Positions 38,021-51,693 are shown, numbered from the stretch's first letter. The stretch: 64,000 bases of DNA from a bacterium (GCA_029559475.1 JAKQBN010000055.1:7089-71088); one strand, 5' to 3'. Translations and numbers: made by a program. The notes: generated by a model from the sequence alone, not told the origin.

Positions 38021-38037
38021 CTTACCTGAATTATTTA
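38021..38037. repeat. boundary motif X copy 2 (cttacctgaattattta)
   Basis: Identical core to 36695-36711; abuts the stop of the AAA-DUF4143 gene. Confidence 0.4.
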
Positions 38038-38048
38038 TAAAAGCCTTA

Positions 38049-39254
38049 TTATTGAAGAGTTGGTTTAGACAGAAAATCAAACAGATTTATATGTTTTACG
38101 CCTGACTTTCTTTTAAAAACGACCGGATCCATTGAAATAACATACTTCGGATGGTTGTCCCTGACAGCCTCAAGGGCTGAAAACTCTCTTTCTGCTGTTT
38201 CCTGATTCTGCATCAGATATGATACCTGAATATAGATTTTTTCTTCTTCCTTTTCCGCTATAAAATCAATTTCCTTGTCTCCTATTCTGCCGAATGATAC
38301 TTTATAATCCCTTCTGTAAAGCTCAAGGCAGACTATGTTCTCCAGTATTCCGCCGATATCTTCATCTCTGAATCCCAGTACCGCGTGTCTTAAACCCAGG
38401 TCGCCGGCGTAATATTTTGCGTTCGTGTCAAGATATTCTTTTCCTTTTAAGTCGTATTGCCTGATCTTATGTGTGATCATTACATCGTTCAGGTTGTGTA
38501 TAAGGCTCAGAATAGTCGGAACACTGGTTTTTATGTGCTGGTTCTTCATATATTTTACGACGCTGCTTGCGTTGAACTGATTACCTATGTTATCGAAAAC
38601 AAAGCTCACTACGTCCTCCAGCAGGCTCACATTCCTTACATTGAATTTCTTAACTATATCTTTGAGAAGTATCGTCTGGTAGATAGCATCAAGGAACTGA
38701 AATGTTGCGGAAGCTTGAAAATCCAGATGAAAAAGTCCCGGCAGCCCTCCGAATCTGATATATTTTCTGAATACTTCCTCCTTCGGCTTACTTTCAAAAC
38801 CTCCGAGCTCGGTAAATTCATTGAAGCTGAAAGTATATATTTTGAACTCGACATATCTGCCTGAGATCAAAGTGGCAAGATCAGATGAGAGAAGATGCGA
38901 GTTCGATCCTGTGATATAAACATCCATGCCTTCAGCCAGAAAAGAGTTCACCGACCGTTCCCATTCCTTTATTTCCTGTACTTCATCAATAAGGATAACC
39001 GAACCGGACTTTCCTCCCGATTCGTCTATATAGCTATTCAATACTTTATAGTCAGTTATAAAATCGAACTGACGAAGCTCTTTATTTATTGAAATGACTT
39101 TCTTTTTCGGTTCGTTATGTTTTATCTCAGCTTCGATCTGCTTCAGCAGTTCACTTTTTCCCACCCTTCTCATACCGCTCAGGATCTTTATGACCGGTTT
39201 ACCCATAAAAGGCCTGATCTTTTTTAAATATGTTTCCCTTATTATAGTTTTCAT
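38049..39254 (-). CDS. AAA ATPase (AAA_14 + DUF4143 family)
   Basis: Walker A SGMRRVGKSELL, Walker B ILIDEVQ, C-terminal DUF4143-like region; 401 aa. Confidence 0.75.
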   Translation of the reverse strand: MKTIIRETYLKKIRPFMGKPVIKILSGMRRVGKSELLKQIEAEIKHNEPKKKVISINKELRQFDFITDYKVLNSYIDESGGKSGSVILIDEVQEIKEWERSVNSFLAEGMDVYITGSNSHLLSSDLATLISGRYVEFKIYTFSFNEFTELGGFESKPKEEVFRKYIRFGGLPGLFHLDFQASATFQFLDAIYQTILLKDIVKKFNVRNVSLLEDVVSFVFDNIGNQFNASSVVKYMKNQHIKTSVPTILSLIHNLNDVMITHKIRQYDLKGKEYLDTNAKYYAGDLGLRHAVLGFRDEDIGGILENIVCLELYRRDYKVSFGRIGDKEIDFIAEKEEEKIYIQVSYLMQNQETAEREFSALEAVRDNHPKYVISMDPVVFKRKSGVKHINLFDFLSKPTLQ

Positions 39255-39590
39255 GTTTTAATTCCTATTTTAAATTCCTGACAAAATAAAGGAAATTTAA
39301 TATATACTTTAGATAAATGCAAGTTTTTAATTAATTTAAAATGTAAAATTATTTAAATATTAAAGCTGCGGCTTCATACTGCGTAGAAGTATCATTTATT
39401 TCTGACCACTTTTGGCTGTTTTACAAGGATAATAAATAACATTAATGGACAAAAGGAAAGGTTATTTTAACAATATTTTGGCTATTTTACAAGGATACTT
39501 TATTTTGAACGATTAATTAACAGGCATATAGGGTAAGTTTCAAATCAACGATACAAGATAAAATTCCCAAATATTCTATAACTACCTTCA

Positions 39591-40094
39591 CTACCCCAGC
39601 CCCAGCACCAATTCCGGAATAAACTTATTCCTTGCGTCAGGATAGATCTTCTTTCTAAAGTTCTCTACCGCAATTTTCTCATATAAGTATAAAGACCCTC
39701 CGTCTCCGGCTATTGAATATTTAGGCATAATAATATCACCCAGCTTAATATCCGCTTTCAAAGCACCTGCCGCGCCTATGAATATCACTTTTTTGCATTT
39801 CGATCCGCCCAGAGTCAAACATGAATCGATCGTATTGGCCGCACCCGCCGCTACCTGAATATAGCCGAAACTTTTACCTTCAAATTCTACGGTATAACCG
39901 CAATAATACGGACCTTTTTTTTCTACTCTGACCACAGGATTGTATGCCGAAAAAATAATTTCAGGATTCCACGAAGGAGCCACGATTACCGCATCGTATT
40001 CAAAATCGGGATCTAACCCGTAGATATCTTTCAGCAGATTATCACAGGCGTTATACTTATGCAGGGATGATTTAAATTTTTCGTAGAGGGTCAT
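39591..40094 (-). pseudogene. truncated PNP/UDP-1 family nucleosidase (MTA/SAH-nucleosidase-like N-terminal half only)
   Basis: GYIQVAAGAANTIDSCLTLGGSKCKKVIFIGAAGALKADIKLGDIIMPKYSIAGDG aligns with the N-terminal half of Pfs/MtnN ([45 protein letters not shown]). The ORF stops after ~130 residues of the fold, the catalytic C-terminal half is absent, and 336 nt of repeat-containing non-coding DNA follow. Confidence 0.5.
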
Positions 40095-40179
40095 CTATTC
40101 GAACTCCTTTGAGCATTTGAGCCTGAAGCATTCAGATACTTATAACTTTTTTTTGTCGTCAATCTAAGAGGGAATAGTA

Positions 40180-40731
40180 TCATTTTTCAAGAAATTGAAT
40201 AGCTTTATATATATTTGAGTATGATCCTCCTTTAAGTTCTAATTCTGAAGCGTATTGAACGGCTTTATACTGTCCTGAAATTAATTTTTCAACCCACTCT
40301 CTATTTTTTAGAAATTTCTCAGTTTTATCATAGCTCTCAATATATTTCAGTAACTCTTTTTTCAATTCGCCATAACTAGAGTATCGCTTATTGCGCTGAA
40401 CAAAATGGATAAGGAACCAGAATTCTATTGAAGGCAGGCTGTCGCAAATCAGCACGTTTTTATTGTCTTTGTATCTTTTTCTAAACTTTTCCAGTTTATC
40501 CTTCTCAACGTCATTTCTTTGTGATACATCAGCATCGAATACGCATATCGCTACAGCATCGGCTTCTAAAATTTCCTTTACTTTTTTCTCTATCTTCGAG
40601 ATGCAGGTATTACTGTCGCAAAATCTTGGACTCACACTATATTTATAATCTTTAAGAATTTTCAGGTGTTTAAAGTAATATTTTTCTGTTACACCTTCTC
40701 CGATTATATGTATTGCTTGCTTTAATTTCAT
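40180..40731 (-). CDS. RloB-like (Toprim-like) protein, AbiLii-like
   Basis: N-terminal IHIIGEGVTEKYYFKHL matches the RloB pattern (ilCEGekTEpnYF); 8-nt gap to the upstream ATPase gene. Confidence 0.7.
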   Translation of the reverse strand: MKLKQAIHIIGEGVTEKYYFKHLKILKDYKYSVSPRFCDSNTCISKIEKKVKEILEADAVAICVFDADVSQRNDVEKDKLEKFRKRYKDNKNVLICDSLPSIEFWFLIHFVQRNKRYSSYGELKKELLKYIESYDKTEKFLKNREWVEKLISGQYKAVQYASELELKGGSYSNIYKAIQFLEK

Positions 40732-40738
40732 TATAATC

Positions 40739-42034
40739 TTAATCTATATTAGGCACTGCTCCGAATTTTCCGTATTTATATGCTTTCTGCAGAGATGAGA
40801 TTCTGTTAAGACCGTTGAAACCTGTAAGGGGATAAAGCTTTGTCGAGCCGTCTTCTCTTTTTTCCGTGAACCAGAAATTATCCTTTCTAAGAAGATCTGT
40901 TTCGTCGAATAAATTGTCATAGTGAGTCGCAACAAGCACCTGAGCTTGGTCTGAATTACGTAGAAAATGCTCAAGAACATATTCAATAAGCCTTGGATGC
41001 AGCTTTGATTCTATCTCATCTATCGTAATGAATGCGTTATCCTCAATCGATTTAATAATTGCTCCGAACAAACCGAATATTCTTTTTGTACCCTCTGATT
41101 GCCATTCTATAGGCAGTCCGTAAATTTCTTTTCTACCATCGCTGACGACAGTATGCTTGAATTCAGTTACAGGATATTTAAAACTCTTATCTTTTTTTAA
41201 ATCTTCAATAACAGATGCGCGAATACTTAAAAAATTACCTATTGTCTGAGCCTGTTTTATAAAATCATCATCAACACTCTGAACGAATTCTTTGACATTT
41301 ATATCAGAAATATTAAAATCAGCCTCTTTCAGGCACTCAAGCATTTTTAATTTATGGCTAGGGTTTGTTTTAATTAATTCCTCTGAAAAATGCTGTAAAG
41401 GATCGTTAGGCACGATTGAATTGAAAACATGATCAAATAGCCATTTTGTAACATCGCTCAAGCCGTTCAGATAAGCATTTATCTTTCTCAATGCCGCCAG
41501 GACAGACATATTTTTCAAACATTTTACATTTAGTTCATCTTGAGTGATCTTGCTGATATTGTTTTTTCCTTTAAAAACTATTTTGGAAACGTCCGACTTC
41601 TCGTCATAATTTCTTTCAAAAAGAGTAGCAGGCTGAGTACCCGGATACATATCAAGCTTTTCATAAAGGACAGCTTTCTGATCGACCTCTAAATAATAAA
41701 CATATTTGATCCCATCTTTATAAAAAACAAGCTTAAACACGCTCGGGTGGTTTCTGCTTGTTTTATCGAGAAGAAAAGGTATTGCATTGGTGCCGGAATA
41801 CTTATTGTCGGTTCCTATAAACCAGAAATTTATAAGGAACTGAAAAGCAGCTATAAGATTAGACTTTCCGGACGCATTGGAACCATATAAAATGCCCAAC
41901 TTTAACAGGCGGACCCCTTTTGCGGCCTCTACAACATGATGATCTTCAAAAGTCCTGTCTTTCGAAGCTTCGAAAGAATATGTAACTTCATCTCTGAACG
42001 AGAGAAAATTCTTGATTGTAAGTGAATGTATCAT
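40739..42034 (-). CDS. AAA_21-type ATPase (RloA/AbiLi-like)
   Basis: Walker A GSNASGKSNLIAAF; C-terminal VLVATHYDNLFDE ABC-like signature; 431 aa; paired with the RloB-like gene as in AbiL systems. Confidence 0.7.
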   Translation of the reverse strand: MIHSLTIKNFLSFRDEVTYSFEASKDRTFEDHHVVEAAKGVRLLKLGILYGSNASGKSNLIAAFQFLINFWFIGTDNKYSGTNAIPFLLDKTSRNHPSVFKLVFYKDGIKYVYYLEVDQKAVLYEKLDMYPGTQPATLFERNYDEKSDVSKIVFKGKNNISKITQDELNVKCLKNMSVLAALRKINAYLNGLSDVTKWLFDHVFNSIVPNDPLQHFSEELIKTNPSHKLKMLECLKEADFNISDINVKEFVQSVDDDFIKQAQTIGNFLSIRASVIEDLKKDKSFKYPVTEFKHTVVSDGRKEIYGLPIEWQSEGTKRIFGLFGAIIKSIEDNAFITIDEIESKLHPRLIEYVLEHFLRNSDQAQVLVATHYDNLFDETDLLRKDNFWFTEKREDGSTKLYPLTGFNGLNRISSLQKAYKYGKFGAVPNID

Positions 42035-42474
42035 TTTTCCGGTTCCGGCAGATTAAACATTGTCAGAAATGTAAAACAAAACACTTAATTTGTCAAGTGA
42101 GTTTATGAAAATAGCAGAAAAATTGCAAAAACATAAAATAAGGTTGTTGTATAAATATAATTATCCTATTTGTTGTGTTAACTTTAAAAAATTACTAACT
42201 TATCTATACGCCAATAATATTTTTTCTAATTTCATAATATAATTTTAATTTAAAAATTACTTTGGATTATTATTATTAATGGGATAGATTTAGTTTATAT
42301 TTGTATCGTAAAGTGAAAAGTCAGGGAACTACGGGAGAGTCCAAATGAGTGAGCCTGTAAACGAAAGAAACATTGTCGTATCGACAAAACGACAATTAAC
42401 AATAATGCAAGGTTAGATGCATGGAAAAAGATTCCATGCGAGTAAATCTGTAATTAGAGAAAAGTAAAACGCAA

Positions 42475-43209
42475 ATGGCAACGACTAAGATAGAATGGAC
42501 AGAATCAACATGGAATCCGATCACCGGATGCACAAAATTATCCGCAGGCTGCAAATTCTGTTATGCCGAAGTAATGGCGAGAAGGCTCAAAGCTATGGGA
42601 CAGCCGAAATACAAAGACGGTTTCAAGCTTACGCTCCATCCCGACACGCTGACAGAACCTTACACTTGGAAGAAGCCTAAAATGATCTTCGTGAACTCAA
42701 TGAGCGATCTCTTCCATAAAGATGTCCCCGTTGATTACATACAAAAAATATTCAAAGTCATCAAAGACAATCCTCAGCATGTATTTCAGATACTAACAAA
42801 AAGAGCCGACATATTAAGATACTACGACAGTGAAGGCTGGCTTGACTGGCCGCATAACCTTTGGATGGGCGTGACAGTGGAAGATTCAACCGTAACATCA
42901 AGAATTGACTGCCTGAGAAAAACAAAAGCAAGAGTAAAATTCCTCTCCTGCGAACCGCTCCTAAGCTCATTACCCGAACTCAACCTACAAGCAATAGACT
43001 GGGTCATCGTAGGCGGAGAAAGCGGAAGAACACCGCGCCCGATCAAAGAAGAATGGATAATCGAAATAAAAGAACAATGTGAAAAAGCCGGAACAGCATT
43101 CTACTTTAAACAGTGGGGCGGCACCAACAAAAAAGAAGCAGGCAGGCTGTTACAAGGCAAAAGGTACGATCAAATGCCTGAAATGGTCGAGCAAGAAACT
43201 CTAATATAA
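42475..43209 (+). CDS. phage Gp37/Gp68-family protein (DUF5131)
   Basis: TKIEWTESTWNPITGCTKLSAGCKFCYA N-terminal Cys motif and the rest of the 244-aa protein match the Gp37/Gp68 family. Confidence 0.75.
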   Translation: MATTKIEWTESTWNPITGCTKLSAGCKFCYAEVMARRLKAMGQPKYKDGFKLTLHPDTLTEPYTWKKPKMIFVNSMSDLFHKDVPVDYIQKIFKVIKDNPQHVFQILTKRADILRYYDSEGWLDWPHNLWMGVTVEDSTVTSRIDCLRKTKARVKFLSCEPLLSSLPELNLQAIDWVIVGGESGRTPRPIKEEWIIEIKEQCEKAGTAFYFKQWGGTNKKEAGRLLQGKRYDQMPEMVEQETLI

Positions 43210-43234
43210 AACTTTTTGTTACGAATAAATCTTA
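43210..43234. repeat. boundary motif M copy B (aactttttgttacgaataaatctta)
   Basis: Immediately follows the Gp37/68 stop codon; ~20/25 identical to copies A and C. Confidence 0.45.
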
Positions 43235-43279
43235 TGCTGTCCGGTCAGTAGACTATCTTTTCTTTACTTCAAATGCGTT

Positions 43280-44647
43280 CTAATTCTTAAATATTTTATC
43301 GTATTTTGTGTAATCGAAATTTGGTCCTAGAATTTTACTTGATTTATCTTTTAATTGTTTTGTTATACGATATATTTCATTGTTGTTATAGAATTCCCCA
43401 TTCTCATTGATTAACTTAAATAATAACTCAAAATCACTATTGTCAAAATCGTTTAAAATTTTGCTAATGATATTATCATACGTGCTTAAAGCAGAATAAT
43501 AAGTAAACGATTTTCCACAATAATTTATCAAGAATGTCTTAACTTGAATTTGAGATAAAACAATTTTTGATCTATTATAAAGCTGCATCAGAGCATCTTC
43601 CTGTATACAGTCGTATAGATTTACATTTACATAGCCATTAGGCTCAATAAGTATTTTATCATGTATTTCTTCGATTTTAGATATATGCGCCTCAATGCTA
43701 TTACTTAGAAAATATGCTACTGTAAATAAAGAAATATTTTTGTTAGCTTCGATTTGTATATAATTTTTTACTGTCGAATCTAGGACATTATATATTTCTG
43801 GATATTTGCTAATATATGATGTAAGAGCAGTAATTCGAGAACTACCTTGATTTATAGCCTTATCGTTTATGCTACAAGAAAAATTACTGGGTTTAATATT
43901 GTTGAATTTTTGTGAATTTTGCTTGATTAAATTTATAAAATCTTCAAGATGTTTTTCTGTAAGTGTCTTAATACAAAATACATTCAGATAACGGTTTTTT
44001 TCGCATTCAGAATTATCAAGAATAAATGTAAGTTTCCATAAAGATTCGAATAGTTTTTCTCTCACTGGTTTGTTAATTCTCGAGTAGTATCGTACATTTA
44101 GGAAATCTTCTAATCCCTCAGTACGGACTCTTTCAAAATAATCTGTAGTATTTTTTAAAAATTCATCAATTATCTTTTTACATAATAACGCTTCTTTCTC
44201 AAAGACAATTTCAAACATATTTCTCATGTGGTTTCTAACATTTTCCGGTGTCGGATTTATTAATCTATTTCCATTGTCAATTAATGGATGAGCAGCTATG
44301 TTTCGTTCTTTAACAAGTTCATTTATTCTATGAAATTCTACATCATTAATTAATTCAGTACTATCTTTTATTTCTTGTAACAATGTTTTTTCCCAGTCTG
44401 AAGATGTAGGTTTTAGCTTTTGTTCGTTCTTGATTTTATCAATTATTCTTTTTGCGTTATTATCAGAATATATTTCATCGAGCAAAATCAATTTGTTCAT
44501 TAAATCATAGACTACTACTGAATACAAAACGACTATTGCAGAACGATAATTACCGTTATGATAACTTGATAAGACTTCTTTTAAGTATTCTTTAGTTTGT
44601 ATGTTTGGAATTTTCTTTATCTCATCTTCAATAATAAATTCATCCAT
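43280..44647 (-). CDS. HEPN-like (Abi-type) domain protein
   Basis: 455 aa. ERNIAAHP (R-x4-H) sits in an alpha-helical N-terminal region typical of HEPN/Abi_2 nucleases. Last gene of the co-directional six-gene cluster (32-nt gap). Confidence 0.45.
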   Translation of the reverse strand: MDEFIIEDEIKKIPNIQTKEYLKEVLSSYHNGNYRSAIVVLYSVVVYDLMNKLILLDEIYSDNNAKRIIDKIKNEQKLKPTSSDWEKTLLQEIKDSTELINDVEFHRINELVKERNIAAHPLIDNGNRLINPTPENVRNHMRNMFEIVFEKEALLCKKIIDEFLKNTTDYFERVRTEGLEDFLNVRYYSRINKPVREKLFESLWKLTFILDNSECEKNRYLNVFCIKTLTEKHLEDFINLIKQNSQKFNNIKPSNFSCSINDKAINQGSSRITALTSYISKYPEIYNVLDSTVKNYIQIEANKNISLFTVAYFLSNSIEAHISKIEEIHDKILIEPNGYVNVNLYDCIQEDALMQLYNRSKIVLSQIQVKTFLINYCGKSFTYYSALSTYDNIISKILNDFDNSDFELLFKLINENGEFYNNNEIYRITKQLKDKSSKILGPNFDYTKYDKIFKN

Positions 44648-44679
44648 TCTTCACCTTCTTTTTTTTATTACAATATTAT

Positions 44680-45639
44680 TTAAGAAAATTTATTTAAAAG
44701 AGTTAAAATCTTTTTAATTTCATATTTTATTTCAGGGCTATCATTGATAGAATCAGCGAATTCAGAATCAGTAATGAGCTCTCGAAATGCTCTCATCTTT
44801 TTATAGATACTATCTATTTTTCCAGTATCTTTAACCTGTTCGAAACCATTATAAATATCTTTTTGCCCCGATGCTATCTCAGCGAGAACTTTTTTCGCTT
44901 TTTTATCAGGACACTTAGCTATTTCACCTACCTTTCTGATGTCAGAAGCCTGTTGTATTTCTTTGTTTTTTATTTGCAAAACGAGAGTATTAACTAATTC
45001 AGGATGAGATTTGGTTGCATTATTTATAGATTTGTTCTTGAGCAACTCGTCATAATAACTCCAATTTGTCGGTTCCAAGTCTTTAGTCTCAATCATAAAA
45101 GAGAAGACTTTTAAATATCTTTGAGCATCTCCTTTTTTTATACCTAACTCTTTAGCCATTATGTCAACAGATAGCTTTGATTCTTTACTTCGTCTGTACA
45201 AATATCCAGCCTGCTCGTATGGACTCCAGTCTTTTCTTCCTATAATGTGATATTGCCCAAGAAGAGTAAAAATAGATGATTCATCAATGTCTGAAGGTAA
45301 AATTAAACATTTAACTTTACCCCATGAAATAGGATCTTTTTGACATAAAATTCGATATGCCGCTAATCGGCTATTTCCTTCAAGTACAACTAAATCACCA
45401 TCACGCACAATTAAAGGATCAATTAGACCGCCATTACTTTCAATGGAAAGCCTAAGTTGCTTCACATGCTCCATCGAAATCATCAATTTTTCAATGTTAC
45501 TTTGATCGGGCTTGATGTCATCAGAAACTCTTAGGGCACTATAGACTCGAGGATTATCGACATAGAACTTAAGAGAAGCTTGGAGGATTTCCTCTTCTTT
45601 TACTTGAAACTCTTTTTTGCCAATTGTCAATGTATTCAT
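44680..45639 (-). CDS. ParB/Srx-fold nuclease-like domain protein (paralogue 1)
   Basis: GLIDPLIVRDGDLVVLEGNSRLAAYRIL matches ParB N-terminal box II (GxxRxxA). Shares HxxGxxDWxPYxxAxYL with the paralogue at 47535-48545. Its start overlaps the SNF2 gene stop by 4 nt. Confidence 0.6.
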   Translation of the reverse strand: MNTLTIGKKEFQVKEEEILQASLKFYVDNPRVYSALRVSDDIKPDQSNIEKLMISMEHVKQLRLSIESNGGLIDPLIVRDGDLVVLEGNSRLAAYRILCQKDPISWGKVKCLILPSDIDESSIFTLLGQYHIIGRKDWSPYEQAGYLYRRSKESKLSVDIMAKELGIKKGDAQRYLKVFSFMIETKDLEPTNWSYYDELLKNKSINNATKSHPELVNTLVLQIKNKEIQQASDIRKVGEIAKCPDKKAKKVLAEIASGQKDIYNGFEQVKDTGKIDSIYKKMRAFRELITDSEFADSINDSPEIKYEIKKILTLLNKFS

Positions 45640-47120
45640 GTTTCACTCTCACTATTTTCATTTAAAATATCTTTAACAAGCTCACCAAAACTATAATCCG
45701 CAACATTTTGGTATTTCTTCAAAACATAATCTCCTTGAGCTAAAAAAGCTGCATTCTGTTTGGCTTTGAGTAAAAGGTCAATCCAAATGTCAATACTATC
45801 TTTAACCATCAAATTATAGATGTTGCAAGTTTTTGTTTGTGAAATACGATGAATTCTATCTTGTGCCTGCAAATAATCATCAAGATTAAAACCGCGATCG
45901 TAAAAAATGACATTGTTCGCAACTGTCAGTGTAAGTCCTTCTTTCGCGGATTGAGGCGTAGCAAATAATACTTTAGCATCTCCATTTTTAAACTCACGTA
46001 CAGAATGTATTCTTTCTTCAATTTTCATTTTTCCGGTAATTTTTACTGCATTAAGGTACTTATACTTTTTACAGAAATGATCAACATTGTCAATAAAAAT
46101 TGACCAAACTATAATCTTTTCATCTCTATTGATTATTTCTTTGATTAATTCATCTAGTTTAGCTTCCTTACCTGAAAAACAGCAGTATAAGTCATCTAAT
46201 AATCTAGGATTTGATGTAATCTGTACCAGTCTTAACAATCTTTTTATTGAATCAGAAGATTCATCAAGTATAGCCACATCATCCCGTTGCAATAATAGTT
46301 GCATCTCTGTTCTAACTTTATCATACATCATGTATTGGGTCTTTTCAAAATCGACAAACACATCATAATACACTTTGTTTGGAAGTGTTATAATTCCGCT
46401 GCTCTTAGTCTCACGTACAGTAAAATCTTTAATTCTCGTAAAAATATTAGATACAGATGATTCAAACACATCTCTTTTTACTTTGTTATTGGACAAATCA
46501 TTAGTAAGATTTGTTGTCGATTTGAACTCAGAGAAATTAGTTCCCAGGCTCTTCCCGTTATCGAGGAAATAAATCTGAGCCCAAATATCATATGGTCTAT
46601 TAGCCACAGGTGTGCCTGTCATTATAACCCGAATCTTAAATAAACTAGAAATCTCGAAAAAATCTTGTGTTAGTCTAGAATCGGGATTTTTTAGTTTCGT
46701 AGATTCATCGATAATAATGGCAACATTCCTAGTCTTTAGAAAAAGCTTGAATCTCACTAACTCACCAGATATAGTTTCAAAATTCGTAATTATTACTCTA
46801 GTAGCGCTATTAAATACATAGTAATTTTCTGTCCGTTTACTTGTTAGGATTCTAGGTGTAATATTAGTATGTATTTCAAACTCGCCACGCCAATTTTCAA
46901 CTAATTGCTTTTTTGTGACAATAAGTACGGTATCAATTTCCAAAAATTCTAACCAATATAAAAGAAGATCAATTGCTATTTTCGTTTTACCTAGTCCTTG
47001 CTCATGAAAGATTGCTGCATATGGCAAATTTTTCATTGCTTCAAAAGCTTCGTATTGATATGGGAATGCATTTAGCTTCGCTGTTAGATTTTGTCCGGGT
47101 AAATTGATTATTTTTCTCAT
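45636..47120 (-). CDS. SNF2-family helicase (compact, 494 aa)
   Basis: Motif I HEQGLGKT, motif II IIDESTKLKN (DExx), motif III MTGTPVAN, motif VI QAQDRIHRISQTK. Confidence 0.8.
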   Translation of the reverse strand: MRKIINLPGQNLTAKLNAFPYQYEAFEAMKNLPYAAIFHEQGLGKTKIAIDLLLYWLEFLEIDTVLIVTKKQLVENWRGEFEIHTNITPRILTSKRTENYYVFNSATRVIITNFETISGELVRFKLFLKTRNVAIIIDESTKLKNPDSRLTQDFFEISSLFKIRVIMTGTPVANRPYDIWAQIYFLDNGKSLGTNFSEFKSTTNLTNDLSNNKVKRDVFESSVSNIFTRIKDFTVRETKSSGIITLPNKVYYDVFVDFEKTQYMMYDKVRTEMQLLLQRDDVAILDESSDSIKRLLRLVQITSNPRLLDDLYCCFSGKEAKLDELIKEIINRDEKIIVWSIFIDNVDHFCKKYKYLNAVKITGKMKIEERIHSVREFKNGDAKVLFATPQSAKEGLTLTVANNVIFYDRGFNLDDYLQAQDRIHRISQTKTCNIYNLMVKDSIDIWIDLLLKAKQNAAFLAQGDYVLKKYQNVADYSFGELVKDILNENSESET

Positions 47121-47530
47121 ACGATACTTACGCTCCCGATGTCGTTTAAAATATGAAGCTTGACCGATGAATTTTGTTCCGCTTTGATTCTTTTAGCCAT
47201 GTTTTTTATTCTTGCGTATGAATAAATTGATGTACAAATAATAATATGGCTTTCTTCATCAAATAATGAGGCTTCTCTAATATATGATCTATACTGTTCA
47301 ATACTGTGTTTACGGTCAATATCATTCTCAGTTTTAGCTTCTCCAATTATCAAACGACGAGTATCTTTGTAATATAGGTCAGGTATAAAATTACCAATCG
47401 TTCTTTCTGGTCTTCTGTTACTATCGGGTAAATCTACTAGCACAAGTGCCCTTGCGTCGAAAGGTAATAATAAAAATACATAATTAGCAATTTGGCGAAC
47501 ATAATTTATATGTTCAATAGATTCAGCCAT
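47117..47530 (-). CDS. small PD-(D/E)xK-like putative nuclease
   Basis: IPDLYYKDTRRLIIGEAKT (D-x13-EAK) in a 137-aa protein; both ends coupled (4-nt overlaps or gaps) to neighbouring genes. Confidence 0.4.
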   Translation of the reverse strand: MAESIEHINYVRQIANYVFLLLPFDARALVLVDLPDSNRRPERTIGNFIPDLYYKDTRRLIIGEAKTENDIDRKHSIEQYRSYIREASLFDEESHIIICTSIYSYARIKNMAKRIKAEQNSSVKLHILNDIGSVSIV

Positions 47531-47534
47531 AAAA

Positions 47535-48545
47535 TTAATCTTCAGGTTGTATGTCTTTCAATATTTCTTGGAGACCTTCAAAAATATCAAGGAGCATTGT
47601 TTTCTTTTTTTCGTATTCGGGATCACTACCTAAATTTTTTACTTCTTTGTATTCTAGCCTGTTAAGCGCTTCTAAGAATTTTGTACCAAGAACATCATAT
47701 GTAAACTTATCTAGCTCATTATGTGTATTCTCAGTTATAGCTATCTTTTTTACAGCTTCTGAGATATTTCTTCTTAAAAAAACTTTTAACGCTTCTGGTT
47801 CCTTCAGTACTGCGGGTAATTGACGCACATTTTGCGCTGTATCGATGTTATCATCGACAACCCATTTTGCAAAATCATTTTTTGTAAAACCTTTATTGGT
47901 TAGTGCATAAGTTATTGTTGACCGTTGAAGCTCAACAAATTTTGAAAATTCTCTTATATCAAAATCATCACCTTTTTCTTTTACTGCTTTGGCATAATAT
48001 ACTTGCATGTCGCGGTATGCACTTATAAGCTTATTTATTTCTGAAGTATTACCACCGCACATGGATATGATATTTGCCATTGGCAAGCGTTCAATTTCAC
48101 TCAGTTGATGTAGATATTTAGCTTTTGAATACGGATCCCAATCACGAGGACCAACTAAATGTGACTGTAATCTAATGGAATGTTTTTCTGAGTCAGTTAA
48201 GCATTCGTAAATAATGGAACTGATTTTACTCCAAGGGCCTGTTGGATTTAACGCTAGAAATTCTTTATAAATTTGAAGTCTCGTATTCCCTTCGATTACG
48301 ATTAAACGTCCATCCGGTTCTTTACTGACTATAATTGGATGAATAATTCCTCCACTGACCTTAATAGACTCCTTTAGAGTATTATAAGATGTAGATGAAT
48401 CACCGTTACCTGGGTTTGTTAATGCAAGTGCAATAGCTTCACTTGTTATTTCACCCGGATAAATCTCAAGATATTGCTTGATTCTTGGATTGTCGAGGTC
48501 AAGATGAATTTCGCTAATGTCCAATTCAATGTATTTAGGTTCCAT
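47535..48545 (-). CDS. ParB/Srx-fold nuclease-like domain protein (paralogue 2)
   Basis: GIIHPIIVSKEPDGRLIVIEGNTRLQIYKEF...GPRDWDPYSKAKYLHQL; paralogous to 44680-45639. Confidence 0.6.
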   Translation of the reverse strand: MEPKYIELDISEIHLDLDNPRIKQYLEIYPGEITSEAIALALTNPGNGDSSTSYNTLKESIKVSGGIIHPIIVSKEPDGRLIVIEGNTRLQIYKEFLALNPTGPWSKISSIIYECLTDSEKHSIRLQSHLVGPRDWDPYSKAKYLHQLSEIERLPMANIISMCGGNTSEINKLISAYRDMQVYYAKAVKEKGDDFDIREFSKFVELQRSTITYALTNKGFTKNDFAKWVVDDNIDTAQNVRQLPAVLKEPEALKVFLRRNISEAVKKIAITENTHNELDKFTYDVLGTKFLEALNRLEYKEVKNLGSDPEYEKKKTMLLDIFEGLQEILKDIQPED

Positions 48546-48556
48546 ATTTTACCCTC

Positions 48557-49819
48557 TTATTTAGATTTATACTGATTAATTTCTTCGAATCTTAAATCAT
48601 AATACTTCTTTGCGATTTCAGGAAACTCCATTTCAAAATCAATCATTGCTTTATAACAAGAGCAATATCCTTTTATGATGTTTGTATGGGTCAGGTGGTA
48701 TTCCTCATTTGCTTTACAGTACTGTCTAAAGCTTTTCTTTTTTAAAAAGTTTGGTTGATTACACCATCTTGCCAACTGTATATACATTGATTTATATTTA
48801 GATTCTTTATAATCCTCATATCTCATTATATAAGGCAAACATCCATGTTCCATTATTATTTTAATACGTTCAAAAGTATTCTCAATATCTCGTTCATCCT
48901 GGCTATCGTATCCGGTAAGGACATATAATTTTGTGGATTTTTTGTAATATTTTTTCCAAATCTTCAAGCTGTTGGAAATTTTTTCAGCATCTTCAATATG
49001 GTCAAATGCAAATATAAAATCACCTTTGTATTTAACTTTTGCAAGCCGTTCAGCTTTATCAGCTGTCATTAGTCGTATATCTAGACCCTGTCTAAATTGG
49101 AAAGGCTTCCCAGTAGCTATTAATGCATCAAGAATGGTGTAGAAGTCAGGTGAAGCCATAAAATTGTCATCCCATAAATATATGCCTCGTCTTTTTGGGT
49201 CTAAAAATTCCGAGATTGGAGAGTGTTTAATAACACGGTCATATTTCCTGTTAACACAATAACTACATTTTCTAAAACAACCTCTTGTCGTGAATCCGAT
49301 TGAGTAATTCAAGTAATCTTCATATCTAATAACATTCTTAGTAAAATTATCTGTTTGACTAGAAATAAAGTCTGTATAGAGTTCATAATCAGGCATGTGA
49401 TGTTCTATCTTATCCGGTAGATCTGGACTGTCCATCCCATAGAAACCTGTACCTCCGATAATTATCTCTTTATTATCAATTCTCTTTTGAATAACAGCTG
49501 GAATTTTAGTAAAATTAAAAACTTTAGACATTATTAAAAAATCATAAATATCTTCTTTCAATTTATCTGCAATTTCAGAGTAGTCACATATTAATTTAAC
49601 GCTATGTCTGAACTCTTTGCAATATCCCGATATTTTAAGTAAAGCAAGATTTGGATGCTTTGTGCCTTGGTCAAGAAGGTCGGCATCAATTATTCCAATT
49701 TTAAATTGTTTGTCGTTAGCCTCAATTAATTCACAAAAAATGAATCCTAATTTATTTTCGAGGAGTTTGTAGTAATTATTTTTTTGAAGGTTTTCTTTTT
49801 TACTTAACATAATTTCCAA
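48557..49819 (-). CDS. radical SAM protein with N-terminal B12-binding-like domain (class B-like)
   Basis: CFRKCSYC (CxxxCxxC) at ~aa 180. The N-terminal FKIGIIDADLLDQGTKHPNLALLKISGYCKEFRHSVKLI resembles the Rossmann-like B12-binding domain of class B radical SAM enzymes. First gene of the cluster. Confidence 0.7.
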   Translation of the reverse strand: MEIMLSKKENLQKNNYYKLLENKLGFIFCELIEANDKQFKIGIIDADLLDQGTKHPNLALLKISGYCKEFRHSVKLICDYSEIADKLKEDIYDFLIMSKVFNFTKIPAVIQKRIDNKEIIIGGTGFYGMDSPDLPDKIEHHMPDYELYTDFISSQTDNFTKNVIRYEDYLNYSIGFTTRGCFRKCSYCVNRKYDRVIKHSPISEFLDPKRRGIYLWDDNFMASPDFYTILDALIATGKPFQFRQGLDIRLMTADKAERLAKVKYKGDFIFAFDHIEDAEKISNSLKIWKKYYKKSTKLYVLTGYDSQDERDIENTFERIKIIMEHGCLPYIMRYEDYKESKYKSMYIQLARWCNQPNFLKKKSFRQYCKANEEYHLTHTNIIKGYCSCYKAMIDFEMEFPEIAKKYYDLRFEEINQYKSK

Positions 49820-50030
49820 GTTTTAAAGTTACAGAATGCTTAACTGAGAGGAAAGTGAGGACTATTTTTGATAGCAATAGACCACTTTTTGTTTAATAGA
49901 ATGAGATATTTTAATGAACTGCTTCGTTTTATAGCTGCGTTATCGTTTCATTTATGACATTAGGAAAATAAAACCTTATGAATGAATAATCAAGTAAATT
50001 GCTTTAGTATTTTGTCTGATATAATTCGAA

Positions 50031-50087
50031 TTAATTAACTTTCTTATACCTGAATACTGCGTAGTTGGTTACGACTGTGCTGTAATG
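50031..50087. repeat. attachment-like direct repeat R1: orphan copy of the ABC-2 permease 3' end
   Basis: ttaattaactttcttatacctgaatactgcgtagttggttacgactgtgctgtaatg. Its reverse complement encodes STVVTNYAVFRYKKVN* against the genuine permease C-terminus STVVTAYAVFRYKKVN*; about 52/56 nt identical to R2. Confidence 0.7.
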
Positions 50088-50109
50088 TAAAATATATTAT
50101 ACAAATGTA

Positions 50110-50138
50110 TTGACAAAAATAATTGACATGTGTATATT
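50110..50138 (+). promoter_or_regulatory. sigma70-like promoter for the XRE/Panacea gene (TTGACA-N17-TATATT)
   Basis: ttgacaaaaataattgacatgtgtatatt followed by AGGAGG and ATGATG (50165). The TTG start at 50123 in the ORF track lies inside this promoter, so the true start is more likely 50165. Confidence 0.4.
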
Positions 50139-51022
50139 GCAGCTACATATTATACAGGAGGTTTATGATGGCGATGAATGAATACATTAGAAAAATGAGA
50201 GAAATGAAAAATATTTCTCAAGAGATCGCCGCAAAAGAACTGGGATATACAAGACAGACATATATACAGATCGAGAGCGGCAGCAGAGATATTACTTTAA
50301 GCGAGTTGAAGAAACTTTCGGCTATGTTTGATATTCCTTTTAATAAATTTGTGACCGAAACAGAACCTGACACATTTAACATAGATTTTGAGGAAAAGGA
50401 AGCGGATATTGAGTCAAAGGAGATAAGGATAAGTGTTCCGCAGAACAGAGTCGGTAAATTCAAGGAGGTTCTGCTTTATATTCTGTCTAAGGCGGGAGCA
50501 AAGCCGAACATTGGTGAGACAGCTATTTATAAACTTTTGTATTTTATTGATTTTGATTATTACGAGAAGTATGAAGAACAGTTGATAGGGGCGAATTATA
50601 TCAAAAATCATTATGGACCGACTCCAGTGATATTTAAAAAACTGACTGAAGAAATGATCGCTGATAATGAGCTTGAAGTGATCGAAAAAACTTATTATGA
50701 ATTCAATCAAAAGAAATATTTACCGAGAAGATGTGCCGATTTAAGTAAAATATCCGCCCGTGAGATTAAGCATATTGACGAGGAACTGGAAAGGCTAAGT
50801 GATAAAAATGCAGCTGAGTTGAGCGAGCTGTCGCATAAAGATGTCCCGTGGATCACAGCGAAGGAAGGTGAAACGATTGAATATGAAGGCGTTTTTTACC
50901 GCACAGGAGATACTTCGGTGAGATATAAAAAATTGAAAGATCGTATGTCCATGGCTGCGGAAGCTTTGTATAACGATTATTGTTCTGATAAAGAGCTCAC
51001 TGCATTTACCGATCTTATTTGA
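50123..51022 (+). CDS. HTH-XRE + Panacea (DUF4065/SocA-like) domain protein; probable start at ATG 50165
   Basis: N-terminal XRE helix-turn-helix ISQEIAAKELGYTRQTYIQIESGSRDITLSELKKLSAMF. The central region, KFKEVLLYILSKAGAKPNIGETAIYKLLYFIDFDYYEKY...NHYGPTP, matches DUF4065/Panacea. Confidence 0.65.
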   Translation: MTCVYCSYILYRRFMMAMNEYIRKMREMKNISQEIAAKELGYTRQTYIQIESGSRDITLSELKKLSAMFDIPFNKFVTETEPDTFNIDFEEKEADIESKEIRISVPQNRVGKFKEVLLYILSKAGAKPNIGETAIYKLLYFIDFDYYEKYEEQLIGANYIKNHYGPTPVIFKKLTEEMIADNELEVIEKTYYEFNQKKYLPRRCADLSKISAREIKHIDEELERLSDKNAAELSELSHKDVPWITAKEGETIEYEGVFYRTGDTSVRYKKLKDRMSMAAEALYNDYCSDKELTAFTDLI

Positions 51023-51080
51023 ATAAGTAGGTTTTGAGAACTCAACTATGCGGAGTGTAGTTAGCTTGAGGGATGGTATT

Positions 51081-51533
51081 TTAATTTTTAAAAGGATTTA
51101 TGATTTTAAGAGTGTTTTCAATCAGTTGATTATGCTGCATATCTTCGCTGTATAAAATTGAACATCCCGACTCCAATGCGGAAGCAATTACTAAGCTGTC
51201 CCAATATGAGAATCCATACCGGTCTTTGATTTCCATAGCCTTAATTACATCAAAAGTGCTTATATCGACTACATTAAAATTAGCTATAGTCTCGATAATG
51301 ATATCATTTACTTTGCCTTTTGTATTGATAGCTTTTTTTACTAGTGCTGAATAAAGCTCATTTAAAATTTGCGTACTTATGATAATATTTTCAAAATTTT
51401 CAGTAATTAACTTATCGGCTATATTTTTTTTTGAGATATCTTCGCTGTAATAAAGGTAAACCCATACATTGGTATCAATAAAAACCTTATCTGTCATATA
51501 ATTCTTCCCGGTTGAACTTATAGCCCTTTTCAA
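51081..51533 (-). CDS. PIN-domain toxin (VapC-like); probable start at the internal MTDKVFIDTNVWV
   Basis: PIN acidic residues in DTNVWV...E...D context; overlaps the upstream antitoxin stop. Confidence 0.75.
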   Translation of the reverse strand: MKRAISSTGKNYMTDKVFIDTNVWVYLYYSEDISKKNIADKLITENFENIIISTQILNELYSALVKKAINTKGKVNDIIIETIANFNVVDISTFDVIKAMEIKDRYGFSYWDSLVIASALESGCSILYSEDMQHNQLIENTLKIINPFKN

Positions 51534-51693
51534 ATTTCATCTGATATCTTTTAACAAAATCAAGAAAACTTTTCTTTTTGTCGTGTTTTTCATCAATAAT
51601 AATGACTTTAATTTTCTGCCCGTCAACCAACCCGAATTCTTCATCTAAAGTCAGGTTATTGTTATTGTATGTGGCGGTAACTACTTTAAACAT
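51487..51693 (-). CDS. small antitoxin partner of the PIN toxin (AF2212/DUF104-like)
   Basis: 68 aa, MFKVVTATYNNNNLTLDEEFGLVDGQKIKVIII pattern; translationally coupled to the PIN gene. Confidence 0.55.
   Translation of the reverse strand: MFKVVTATYNNNNLTLDEEFGLVDGQKIKVIIIDEKHDKKKSFLDFVKRYQMKFEKGYKFNREELYDR

Follow-up and report, generated by a model that had tools for sequence, protein, structure and literature searches.

A conserved radical SAM-led gene cassette in a bacterial defence island, with a possible role in DNA marking and restriction

A 64,000-nucleotide stretch of bacterial DNA (GCA_029559475.1 JAKQBN010000055.1:7089-71088; hereafter, the window) carries five genes whose arrangement and neighbourhood support their assignment to a conserved, unnamed system in a defence context, with a radical SAM enzyme as its lead enzyme. 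We consider it somewhat probable that positions 44680 to 49810 are a copy of a widespread restriction-modification-like defence cassette, in which the radical SAM enzyme would write a mark on DNA and a motor and a nuclease would attack unmarked DNA. We found no description of this five-gene/c4 cassette, c4 being the winged-helix gene that usually closes it, in the searchable literature. An earlier note on the same DNA had proposed a six-gene system; its view of a conserved, unnamed, radical SAM-led system in a defence context holds, whereas its six-gene boundary and the role that it gave to a HEPN protein do not.

RESULTS

Gene organization of the window

The earlier note had described six co-directional minus-strand ORFs with coupled junctions between 43280 and 49819, and the coordinates, gaps and overlaps all matched exactly. 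Computed from the coordinates, the junctions comprise an 11-nt gap, a 4-nt gap, two 4-nt ATGA overlaps and a 32-nt gap. In order of transcription, the genes are the following:

48557 to 49810, minus strand: radical SAM enzyme, the predicted "writer"; 417 aa from the ATG at 49810, with an N-terminal Rossmann (B12-binding-like) domain and a radical SAM core
47535 to 48545, minus strand: putative ParB/Srx-fold protein 1 (ParB 1); 336 aa, with NPR at residue 19 and EGNTR at residue 85
47117 to 47530, minus strand: 137-aa putative RecB/Cas4-type PD-(D/E)xK nuclease, by its motif set only
45636 to 47120, minus strand: compact SNF2-family ATPase; 494 aa, with GLGKT (42), DES (138) and QAQDR (418) intact
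44680 to 45639, minus strand: putative ParB/Srx-fold protein 2 (ParB 2), a paralogue of ParB 1; 319 aa, with NPR at residue 29 and EGNSR at residue 87
43280 to 44647, minus strand: PD-T7-3/DARNA homologue, outside the cassette; 455 aa, with a PADLOC profile match and R-x4-H

The radical SAM ORF had been listed with a TTG start at 49819. Translation from the ATG at 49810 yields a 417-aa database protein (P0001) with 100% identity, and this ATG is probably the true start of the gene. The region is, as had been claimed, richer in AT than its flanks: GC content is approximately 44% in the flanking DNA but drops to 32.3% in the block of five genes and to 26.6% in the last gene. However, low GC content cannot delimit the cassette, because the entire 35.0- to 51.7-kb stretch (35021 to 51693) is AT-rich throughout (34.0% GC). 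Genes for RhuM, AbiLi/AbiLii, a DUF5131 protein, HTH-Panacea and a PIN toxin-antitoxin pair, identified with Pfam and PADLOC, surround the cassette and bear out the proposed defence-island context. The neighbouring DUF5131 protein also gave a subthreshold PADLOC match to DpdJ (E 0.049).

The last gene is separate from the cassette

The R-x4-H HEPN motif that had been reported for the last gene is present as RNIAAH at residue 115 (R115-x4-H120). Its product matches the PADLOC PD-T7-3 profile over essentially its full length, with residues 1 to 452 aligned to profile positions 1 to 428 of 432 (E 5e-104). PD-T7-3/DARNA is a stand-alone abortive-infection HEPN tRNA anticodon nuclease, and the characterised protein carries the motif R117-x4-H122 (bioRxiv 10.64898/2026.02.22.705581). 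A DARNA homologue was found in none of 160 related cellular loci, and it lay beside the other five genes in none of approximately 240 related loci. DNA homology with the closest relatives is confined to window positions 49705 to 44707 and breaks off at the 3' terminus of the gene for ParB 2. Neither the claim that the six genes form one unit nor the claim that the HEPN gene belongs to the system survives these results. On sequence grounds, the last gene is assigned to PD-T7-3/DARNA, a known anti-phage RNase separate from the five-gene cassette.

The lead gene encodes a divergent radical SAM enzyme

The description of the lead gene as a CxxxCxxC radical SAM enzyme with an N-terminal B12-binding-like domain was upheld in both parts. 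The motif CFRKCSYC occupies residues 181 to 188, and its three cysteines (C181, C185 and C188) are invariant in alignments of 15 and 57 sequences. Four more family-invariant cysteines are situated in the C-terminal part of the protein (C327, C353, C368 and C386). The product of 48557 to 49810 has the partial TIM-barrel radical SAM core fold. It scored 15.5 bits against Pfam PF04055, below the gathering cutoff of 29.5, because the family has diverged too far for the generic model to recognize it, and no model for the family exists in Pfam, NCBIfam or PADLOC.

Structural comparison revealed an N-terminal Rossmann domain resembling those of B12-dependent radical SAM enzymes. AprD4, RimO and MiaB have the same N-domain fold without cobalamin; because of this, and because Pfam B12-binding found no match in the protein, the domain does not permit an inference about cobalamin. 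The nearest structural neighbours are MgmA, RimO, MiaB and TsrM, which are macromolecule modifiers. The substrates of the top structural neighbours are protein, tRNA or small molecules. A methylthiotransferase of the MiaB/RimO type was rejected, since the family has no invariant cysteine before residue 181, and hence no N-domain cysteine triad, and no TRAM match was obtained with Pfam.

ParB-like proteins, SNF2 ATPase and a putative nuclease

ParB 1 gave a weak, subthreshold match to Pfam ParB_N (15.7 bits) and ParB 2 gave no Pfam ParB match, yet PF02195 is found in many of their close homologues. Both proteins match PHROG ParB-like families. The PHROG and PADLOC (PD-Lambda-5_A/PDC-M38A) matches of ParB 1 cover its N-terminal part only, and the PADLOC PDC-M38A match of ParB 2 is likewise partial (E 3e-10). 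NPR and EGNxR motifs are conserved in both proteins, which are 25 to 30% identical in tblastn cross-hits, in agreement with the claim that they are paralogous ParB-like proteins. ParB 2 keeps the same cassette position in relatives.

The assignment of an SNF2 ATPase was also sound: Pfam SNF2-rel_dom (E 4e-24, 85.6 bits) and Helicase_C (E 2e-19, 70.4 bits) both exceeded their thresholds, and the Walker A, Walker B and VI motifs are intact. This is the best-conserved cassette member, with a mean pairwise identity of 64%. Its PADLOC matches are confined to the helicase parts of ZorD, DpdE, DrmD and BrxH.

The 137-aa protein carries E3, P50-D51, E64-A-K66 and Q79-x3-Y83, residues that are invariant or nearly so. 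The series E ... PD ... (D/E)xK ... QxxxY is the established RecB-family motif pattern. Searches with Pfam, PADLOC, NCBIfam, PHROG, PDB profiles and hhalign returned no support for a nuclease; judged by its motifs and the known family pattern, the protein is a putative RecB/Cas4-type PD-(D/E)xK nuclease.

The cassette is conserved and usually closed by a winged-helix protein

The canonical gene order is radical SAM enzyme, ParB-like 1, small RecB-motif protein, SNF2 ATPase, ParB-like 2 and winged-helix c4, and the cassette is conserved across bacterial phyla and archaea, usually closed by c4. Among loci seeded with the radical SAM enzyme, 19 of 80 hold all five genes, spanning several phyla and one archaeon, with the order permuted in three loci. 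When ParB 1 was used as the seed, the radical SAM gene was present in 57 of 58 loci with upstream room, and c4 was present in 53 of 56 with room. Pairwise identities of the six cassette proteins co-vary (r 0.50 to 0.74), and the five genes are inherited as a unit. Two of the checks suggested earlier bore the note out: the synteny of the radical SAM, SNF2 and two ParB-like genes recurs in many genomes, and PADLOC made no call for the radical SAM or 137-aa proteins and only domain-level matches for the ParB-like and SNF2 proteins.

The sixth component, c4, is a winged-helix DNA-binding protein. It evolves fast (mean identity, 35%), occurs in one to three copies per locus, and in most relatives is either part of the radical SAM protein or encoded beside it; its fusion partners comprise the radical SAM enzyme, a PLD nuclease, a LexA-type S24 peptidase, and sigma-70 regions 2 and 4. 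The most conserved c4 residues, KYGENH, sit in the predicted recognition helix, a placement more in keeping with an unvarying contact to DNA or protein than with a sequence reader that varies.

In the window, five of the six canonical genes are present and collinear, and DARNA occupies the c4 slot. A c4 profile found no match in any of the six frames of the whole 64-kb window (hmmsearch, E<=10). The closest relatives, with 75 to 85% protein identity, carry c4 directly after ParB 2. The earlier note's set of six genes omits c4, the sixth component in relatives, which the window lacks.

This absence, set against the retention of c4 in nearly all related loci including the closest, could mean that the window copy is a nonfunctional remnant, its targeting disabled when c4 was lost and its genes still in place only because little time has passed since. 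We regard this as unlikely. None of the five ORFs is truncated or has lost a family-invariant residue, the same gene set recurs on several independent metagenome contigs, and the related phage enzymes described below operate in a c4-less context. Another Bacteroidota locus (L009) also lacks c4 and has AbiH in its place, which suggests a viable variant, and a c4 gene could sit elsewhere in the genome. Without c4, the window copy may work with no targeting to particular sequences, as seems to be the case for the phage enzymes, or may be partly disabled; its activity is uncertain because a component kept by almost all cellular relatives is missing.

Radical SAM relatives associate with other restriction modules and with phage methylases

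The earlier reading had missed the coupling of the radical SAM family to DndFGH, PbeABCD, other restriction modules and phage methyltransferase clusters. Members, usually accompanied by c4, occur in 29 loci with PbeA and PbeC (PADLOC E 3e-194 and 4e-77) and a gene of PbeD size, and in four Clostridium genomes with DndF/G/H (DndH E = 0). Cultured bacteria that carry such genes include Clostridium paridis YIM B02565 (cassette type) and C. cavendishii DSM 21758 (DndFGH type). A GmrSD-like (GmrSD_N/GmrSD_C) protein replaces the four-gene module in two loci, a PDDEXK_11 nuclease is present in four, three of which also encode a PLD nuclease fused to c4, and AIPR/Mrr and SIR2-HATPase proteins appear in single loci. 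For the Pbe and DndFGH loci, 10 kb was inspected on either side; in the four loci of the alternative-partner type that were checked, no Dnd writer, Ssp or methyltransferase gene lay close by. Dnd or Ssp genes could be located elsewhere in the genomes of the Pbe- and DndFGH-linked loci. Earlier publications had remarked that phosphorothioate genes are missing from many PbeABCD and DndFGH systems, which might be partnered by modifications of another kind (PMC6459918; PMC10853773), and it has been argued that DndFGH can act alone (PMC10853773).

Viral relatives of the radical SAM enzyme were found on 153 IMG/VR contigs and in 17 INPHARED records. In 39 of 77 viral loci, the gene lies within five genes of a ParB_N domain fused to an N6/N4 DNA methylase; frequent phage neighbours are a C5 cytosine methylase and a protein with an S-adenosylmethionine synthetase N-terminal-domain match (PF00438, E 5e-9, 60 residues). 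The phage loci contain neither the SNF2, ParB and nuclease set nor c4. In one archaeal virus, a ParB-like gene adjoins the radical SAM gene.

These associations bear on whether the cassette has a restriction arm at all. All five or six proteins might instead constitute an epigenetic DNA-modification machine, with ParB and SNF2 loading or moving the radical SAM enzyme, the small protein nicking or flipping DNA, and any defence provided by unlinked nucleases. The viral ParB_N-methylase fusions and the adjoining archaeal virus gene agree with such a machine, as do the ParB-like ATPases DpdB, which serves the writing step of Dpd, and DndB, which accompanies it in Dnd (PMC12839542; PMC10853773). 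Nevertheless, we judge it improbable, since the phages keep the enzyme without the other proteins and since bona fide restriction modules (DndFGH, the PbeA HKD-helicase, GmrSD-like proteins and PLD-c4) fill the same slot elsewhere. Moreover, in one locus (L111), the ParB/nuclease/SNF2/ParB module lacks both the radical SAM enzyme and c4 and is flanked by two DNA methyltransferase genes and a DpnII endonuclease gene, the methyltransferases filling the slot of the radical SAM enzyme.

DISCUSSION

In the restriction-modification-like reading that we favour, the radical SAM enzyme, guided by the DNA-binding domain of c4, would set a covalent mark on host DNA, one that requires radical chemistry, such as methylation or alkylation of an unactivated carbon or another modification beyond the reach of ordinary methyltransferases. 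The four remaining proteins would form a reading and restriction machine. In it, binding or clamping of DNA would fall to the two ParB/Srx NTPase-type proteins and translocation to the SNF2 motor, and the PD-(D/E)xK protein would cleave DNA without the mark. By analogy with DpdB in Dpd, the ParB proteins could alternatively act in the writing step rather than in restriction. The window copy, with its genes intact, has lost c4, whose position holds an unrelated abortive-infection gene, DARNA/PD-T7-3. Gene content, conservation, synteny, domain folds, fusions and alternative partners are observed; the DNA substrate, the chemistry of the mark and the tasks assigned to the four other proteins are inferred.

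ParB/Srx folds bind NTPs, and the enzyme might accordingly make a small molecule (a modified nucleotide, a chain terminator or a signal) that the ParB-like proteins sense or use to trigger the SNF2 ATPase and the nuclease, in the manner of viperins or of signalling abortive infection. Radical SAM defence enzymes that act on nucleotides do exist, namely, prokaryotic viperins and Ophion (bioRxiv 10.1101/2025.09.30.679545), and the inferred nature of the DNA substrate and the lack of a DNA-binding c4 in the window copy are compatible with this scheme, but we give it a low probability, slightly below that of a modification-only machine.

ParB-like proteins and SNF2 ATPases are also found in partition and repair. 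A function outside defence, be it DNA repair in the manner of spore photoproduct lyase, a DNA-acting radical SAM enzyme (PMC8989533), or plasmid or chromosome partition or maintenance on a mobile element, is very improbable.

Returning to the marking of host DNA, a broader and more tentative proposal, which we put forward as plausible but somewhat doubtful, is that the family writes a chemically new covalent DNA mark (radical C-methylation or alkylation, or a backbone change) by which at least five different restriction modules recognize "self": the ParB/SNF2/nuclease set, "solitary" PbeABCD, DndFGH, GmrSD-like proteins and PLD-c4 nucleases. To counterfeit this label, phages would have taken up the enzyme, but not c4, into their clusters of methyltransferase genes. 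If true, this would be the first radical-SAM-based restriction-modification system and would explain the many Pbe and DndFGH loci that lack phosphorothioate genes.

The earlier note could not place the cluster among the Dnd, Ssp, Dpd, DISARM, BREX and Zorya systems, and PADLOC bore this out: their defining partners were not found among the cassette proteins. Dnd and Ssp were rejected because none of the nine window proteins scanned gave a PADLOC Dnd or Ssp match. Dpd was rejected because the scanned proteins gave no PADLOC match to the TGT-like DpdA, DpdB or DpdC and, besides the subthreshold DpdJ match, only a helicase-core match to DpdE. DISARM, Zorya and BREX were rejected because the DrmD, ZorD and BrxH helicase-domain matches are partial and DrmA/DrmB, ZorA/ZorB and PglX/PglZ/BrxC are absent from the cassette. 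The adjoining PD-T7-3/DARNA gene is a full-length homologue with the catalytic R-x4-H, unrelated to the five genes.

The phosphorothioate systems Dnd and Pbe share with the proposed system the logic of a writer module combined with an interchangeable restriction module, and in other genomes, members of the radical SAM family share a locus with authentic DndFGH or PbeA/PbeC genes. The ParB-superfamily protein DndB accompanies the Dnd writer as ParB-like proteins accompany the radical SAM enzyme here, and both kinds of system have spread horizontally over bacteria and archaea. However, DndA, DndC, DndD and DndE are absent from the cassette and from the vicinity of the linked loci checked, the Dnd writer is a PP-loop ATPase whereas the predicted writer here is a canonical CxxxCxxC radical SAM enzyme, and the restriction module in the window (two ParB-like proteins, SNF2 and a small putative nuclease) is neither DndFGH nor Pbe.

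SspABCD-SspE and GmrSD read the modification state of DNA with a ParB/Srx-type (DUF262) NTPase and a nuclease, as is proposed here, but their nuclease is HNH and joined to the NTPase, whereas the cassette has a PD-(D/E)xK motif, separate proteins and an added SNF2 motor, and it contains no Ssp writer genes. Dpd is similarly a multigene island for defence by DNA modification, in which DpdB is a ParB-like ATPase and DpdE an SNF2-type helicase; the PADLOC DpdE profiles match the SNF2 helicase core (E 1e-32), covering only the helicase region of much larger proteins, and the Dpd writer belongs to an enzyme class unrelated to radical SAM. Class B radical SAM methylases (MgmA, TsrM, CysS and TokK) and methylthiotransferases (MiaB and RimO) are only 10 to 14% identical to the window enzyme. 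A precedent comes from gp53 of phage M6, an isomerase of thymidine hypermodification that belongs to the radical SAM enzymes and works on DNA after replication to install a protective modification (PMC8989533).

The radical SAM cassette and the adjacent HEPN gene are separate systems

The earlier note had treated six genes of the window as one candidate undescribed defence or DNA-modification system. All six open reading frames (ORFs) that it described were recovered:

48557-49819, minus strand: ORF, radical SAM enzyme
47535-48545, minus strand: ORF, ParB-like protein (ParB 1), with NPR and EGNxR motifs
47117-47530, minus strand: ORF, 137-aa protein, with P50-D51, E64-A-K66 and Q79-x3-Y83
45636-47120, minus strand: ORF, SNF2 protein, with GLGKT, DES and QAQDR
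44680-45639, minus strand: ORF, ParB-like protein (ParB 2), with NPR and EGNxR motifs
43280-44647, minus strand: ORF, HEPN protein, with RNIAAH at residue 115

Recomputed from these coordinates, the junctions are gaps of 11 and 4 nt, two 4-nt overlaps, and a gap of 32 nt. The motifs that had been named for these proteins were all present, including CFRKCSYC at residues 181 to 188 of the radical SAM enzyme. Translation of the latter probably starts at the ATG at 49810, which yields a 417-aa protein 100% identical to P0001, a database entry annotated as a “hypothetical protein” in a metagenome-assembled genome (MAG). The low GC content that had been taken to set the genes apart was confirmed (32.3% in the five-gene block and 26.6% in the last gene, with flanks of ~44%), but it does not delimit an operon: low GC extends over the whole tract from ~35.0 to 51.7 kb (34.0% in 35021-51693), and composition thus marks the island. 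A scan for sigma-70 promoters and terminators, which is uninformative for a Bacteroidota host, gave matches not above shuffled expectation and no minus-strand terminator inside the block. The host looks like a member of the Bacteroidota; a cyclophilin gene at 33479-35005 (plus strand) encodes a type IX secretion C-terminal sorting domain (Por_Secre_tail), and the closest relatives of the cassette are found in Paludibacter, Chitinophagales and Bacteroidetes MAGs.

PADLOC identified the last of the six genes as PD-T7-3 over its full length (E 5e-104). PD-T7-3 is DARNA, a stand-alone HEPN tRNA anticodon nuclease with a catalytic R117-x4-H122 that is triggered by phage SSB-bound single-stranded DNA (bioRxiv 10.64898/2026.02.22.705581). 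No PD-T7-3 homologue occurred in the radical-SAM-seeded loci (80 listed of 272). At the DNA level, the window matches its closest relatives, loci L002 and L003, from 49705 to 44707, and the homology stops at the 3′ end of ParB 2, where the relatives continue with a gene for a winged-helix protein (c4) and the window continues with DARNA, indicating that these are two separate things. Synteny, the homology break at 44707 and the identity of the sixth gene together rule out a single six-gene unit. The window contains a five-gene, c4-less copy of a six-gene cassette and, in the place of c4, an unrelated single-gene system.

A profile search of all six frames of the 64 kb for c4 returned nothing at E<=10. 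In a Paludibacteraceae MAG (Bacteroidota; L009, 8578-10278), an AbiH-family abortive-infection gene follows ParB 2 instead of c4. This arrangement parallels DARNA in the window, and single-gene abortive-infection systems may replace c4 at a hot spot formed by the cassette's 3′ end. The cassette genes in the window are intact, no invariant residue has been lost in them, and independent contigs carry the same set of genes. The absence of c4 nevertheless adds uncertainty, and we regard impaired function of the window copy as a serious possibility, though less likely than not.

The cassette lies in a defence island, as had been proposed: its neighbours include RhuM, AAA_14/DUF4143, AbiLii (RloB), AbiLi, DUF5131 (PDC-M41B/M30B) and HTH-Panacea genes and a PIN toxin-antitoxin pair. 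The DUF5131 gene (phage Gp37/Gp68-type; 42475-43209, plus strand; PADLOC candidate components PDC-M41B and PDC-M30B, both at E 1e-124; phrog_2045) is convergent with DARNA, and since the 440-nt gap upstream of it holds no ‘A’ partner gene, it resembles an orphaned B component. A 167-aa ORF (39591-40094, minus strand), located between the AbiL pair and the AAA_14/DUF4143 gene, matches only positions 66-112 of 233 of the PNP_UDP_1 phosphorylase profile and looks like a gene fragment. On JGI contigs (L243) whose ParB 1 is 99% identical, the cassette directly follows an ABC-2 permease gene; the HTH-Panacea gene and the PIN/AF2212-like toxin-antitoxin pair (window 50123-51693) are missing there, so these three genes were recently inserted between permease gene and cassette. 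A further radical SAM gene, unrelated to that of the cassette (window ~55706-56623, minus strand; L249 3188-4105; PF04055 and Fer4_12, 305 aa) clusters with genes for a TetR regulator, an outer-membrane efflux protein, two ABC ATPases and two ABC-2 permeases, a cluster that may serve peptide maturation and export.

The cassette recurs across phyla and lacks a named family

Homologues of the radical SAM protein number more than 5,400 sequences, of which none is named and none has a Pfam domain. The family comprises 344 clusters at E<=1e-30 in a 50%-identity representative library and ranges over gut, rumen and sediment anaerobes and archaea; no library searched gave it a name. A scan seeded on the radical SAM protein, with one genome per species, gave 272 loci, of which the 80 listed come from Bacteroidota, Bacillota, Actinomycetota, Chloroflexota, other phyla and Thermoplasmata archaea. 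In 19 of these 80 loci, ParB 1, the 137-aa gene, SNF2 and ParB 2 come after the radical SAM gene; the latter lies at the opposite end in three loci and is divergent in an archaeon. In a reciprocal scan of metagenomes seeded on ParB 1, the radical SAM gene was present in 57 of the 58 loci with upstream room, and c4 (~226 aa, directly after ParB 2) in 53 of the 56 with downstream room. The expectation of synteny in other genomes was thus borne out for the radical SAM gene and the ParB/137-aa/SNF2/ParB set. Across 23 complete loci, the divergence of the six proteins co-varies (r 0.50-0.74), with mean identity highest for SNF2 (64%) and lowest for c4 and the 137-aa protein (35%). Relatives on plasmids were limited to distant matches (<=33% identity). 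Variants in L156 (13906-17473) and L023 (11826-14552) carry the radical SAM gene after ParB 2 together with additional ATPase genes of the GHKL type, either HATPase_c_3 by itself or a fusion of it with SIR2_2; at 26% identity and 679 aa, the radical SAM enzyme of L156 has diverged strongly.

The profile libraries gave little for the individual proteins. The radical SAM enzyme had nothing above threshold in Pfam, NCBIfam or PADLOC, and the 137-aa protein had no match in the same three. The ParB-like proteins fell below the Pfam thresholds, with partial PADLOC matches to PD-Lambda-5_A and PDC-M38A, and profiles of ParB 1 and the radical SAM enzyme found only weak ParB-motif matches, to SbnI and Noc, among PDB sequences. 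SNF2 exceeded the Pfam thresholds, with PADLOC matches confined to the helicase cores of ZorD, DpdE and DrmD. The absence of a PADLOC call, which had been predicted for the cluster, therefore holds for the five genes, with none or partial matches, and fails for the sixth. For the 137-aa protein, the invariant residues (E3, P50-D51, E64-x-K66, Q79-x3-Y83) suggest a putative small RecB-motif nuclease, an assignment that is the weakest link of our interpretation; a profile search against PDB sequences gave no support, and kinship with the PDDEXK_11 nucleases found at other loci was likewise not supported (hhalign probability 0.1).

The radical SAM enzyme is combined with interchangeable restriction partners

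Other modules follow the enzyme, which usually has c4 fused to it or next to it, in the other loci seeded on radical SAM.

Modules that follow the radical SAM gene in place of the ParB/137-aa/SNF2/ParB set
PbeA (PADLOC E 3e-194), PbeC (E 4e-77) and a PbeD-sized gene: 29 loci
DndF, DndG and DndH (DndH E = 0): four Clostridium genomes
GmrSD_N/GmrSD_C protein: two loci
PDDEXK_11 nuclease: four loci, three also with a PLD nuclease fused to a c4 domain
AIPR/Mrr or SIR2-HATPase proteins: single loci

In the four radical SAM loci of the DndFGH or Pbe type that were checked, no Dnd, Ssp or methyltransferase genes lay within 10 kb. Conversely, L111 (999-7443) has the ParB/137-aa/SNF2/ParB module with neither a radical SAM gene nor c4, embedded between two upstream DNA methyltransferase genes (D12 N6-methylase and N6_N4) and a downstream DpnII endonuclease gene; a TPR/PIN protein (PIN-TPR-GreABC) comes next after this region. 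The varied partners of the radical SAM enzyme and the methyltransferases beside the L111 module give the picture of writer and reader/cutter modules being swapped independently. Xiong et al. found 320 of 553 PbeAC pairs without nearby dnd genes and proposed other modifications as partners (PMC6459918), and Krishnan et al. showed that DndFGH frequently occurs uncoupled from DndABCDE and that cytosine methylases can be recruited by Pbe (CxC ABC ATPase) systems (PMC10853773). A radical SAM partner appears in neither paper, “radical SAM” in PMC10853773 referring to DndC only, and the searchable literature yielded no paper tying a radical SAM enzyme to Pbe or DndFGH.

The c4 domain is similarly mobile. 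In many genomes it forms the C-terminal part of the radical SAM protein, which is then 600-650 aa long, and its other fusion partners are a LexA-type S24 peptidase (L022 5864-7012), sigma-70 regions 2 and 4 (L015 15148-17547) and PLD nucleases (L037 10123-11283, L067 8789-9928). These four partners, and up to three c4 copies per locus, point to a DNA-recognition module common to writer and cutter. Because conservation in c4 peaks at KYGENH, in the predicted recognition helix, the contact that it makes could be constant rather than variable. The fusions with LexA-like and sigma-like proteins are a hint that the domain also serves regulation, possibly in response to damage.

Fold and phage context of the radical SAM enzyme

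The structural neighbours of the radical SAM enzyme were RimO (15.5), AprD4 (14.4), MiaB (14.3), CysS (13.2), TsrM (12.6), viperin (7.6) and spore photoproduct lyase (6.4). The fold supports the earlier description of the N-terminal domain as B12-binding-like and does not decide cobalamin binding itself, because cobalamin-free enzymes have the same fold. Methylthiotransferases have a Cys triad of their own in the N-domain, whereas the enzyme studied here lacks that triad; it has four more family-invariant Cys residues (327, 353, 368 and 386).

The enzyme belongs to phrog_9298 (E 5e-52), with viral relatives in 17 INPHARED records and 153 IMG/VR contigs, to which a BFVD fold search added nothing beyond unnamed radical SAM proteins of phages. 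With a length of 360-400 aa, the phage copies lack c4 and, with two exceptions, restriction partners as well. A ParB_N + N6/N4 DNA-methylase fusion lies <=5 genes from the radical SAM gene in 39 of 77 viral loci; a C5 cytosine methylase gene often adjoins it, near terminase genes, and a match to the S-adenosylmethionine synthetase N-terminal domain (PF00438, E 5e-9, 60 residues) is often found upstream. A recurrent gene string, seen in L208 (4424-11350), L161 (4776-8905) and ~40 other IMG/VR loci, runs from the terminase small subunit through the synthetase-domain match, the ParB_N + N6/N4 methylase fusion, the radical SAM enzyme, the C5 cytosine methylase and a ~235-285-aa protein to the terminase large subunit; unnamed families v3, v14, v39 and v60 were seen in it.

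Orphan modification enzymes in phage anti-restriction clusters are a classic signature of a DNA-protecting mark. The methyltransferase-cluster context of the phage copies is the strongest single argument for DNA as the substrate of the radical SAM enzyme. Phage M6 gp53, an SPL-like radical SAM isomerase in thymidine hypermodification, was presented by its authors as the first radical SAM enzyme to take part in installing a DNA modification (PMC8989533); radical SAM chemistry on DNA has a precedent in this enzyme, although it belongs to another subfamily than the cassette enzyme.

A proposed restriction-modification-like system

The observations made here comprise the content and synteny of the genes, the exchange of partner modules, the folds, the fusions and the phage context; that DNA is the substrate, what the mark is, and which proteins read and which cut are inferences. 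On balance, we lean towards a restriction-modification-like system in which the radical SAM enzyme marks host DNA. The enzyme would be guided by c4 in the canonical form, and the two ParB/Srx proteins, the SNF2 motor and the small RecB-motif protein would read DNA and cut it if unmarked. That the mark itself is chemically new is a tentative suggestion, to which we give somewhat less than even chances.

If this reading is true, a radical SAM writer would be new chemistry in bacterial epigenetic immunity. To our knowledge, all cellular DNA self-marking defence uses ordinary methyltransferases, the Dnd/Ssp sulfur machinery or the Dpd 7-deazaguanine pathway. The coupling to DndFGH and PbeABCD bears on self-recognition in “solitary” Pbe and DndFGH systems, a question raised previously (PMC6459918, PMC10853773), and from the phage copies in methyltransferase clusters a corresponding counter-defence is predicted. 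The prediction of a DNA mark is open to mass spectrometry, because several carriers are in culture: Clostridium paridis YIM B02565 (L050) for the cassette type, C. cavendishii DSM 21758 and C. hydrogeniformans DSM 21757 for the DndFGH type, and Enorma massiliensis phI, Mitsuokella jalaludinii DSM 13811, Acidaminobacter sp. JC074 and Lentisphaerae WC36 for the Pbe type. A DNA mark so far unrecognised in common Bacteroidota and Clostridia of the gut would also have consequences for base-calling by nanopore and SMRT sequencing and for the genetic tractability of these organisms.

Ophion, the sole radical SAM defence system retrieved, is a different system with other partners. A description of the gene set was not found in the searchable literature, which does not cover subscription journals, so that a prior description is possible; PADLOC 2.0, Pfam and NCBIfam contain neither the writer class nor the four-gene reader module. 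The partial PADLOC matches to Dpd, DISARM, Zorya and BREX are at domain level only, consistent with the earlier placement of the gene set outside named systems, and these four and PD-Lambda-5 were rejected as its class. A writer coupled to a restriction module is a logic that the cassette has in common with Dnd, Ssp, Dpd and classical restriction-modification. This overall logic is already known; what appears new here is the class of writer and the four-gene reader module.
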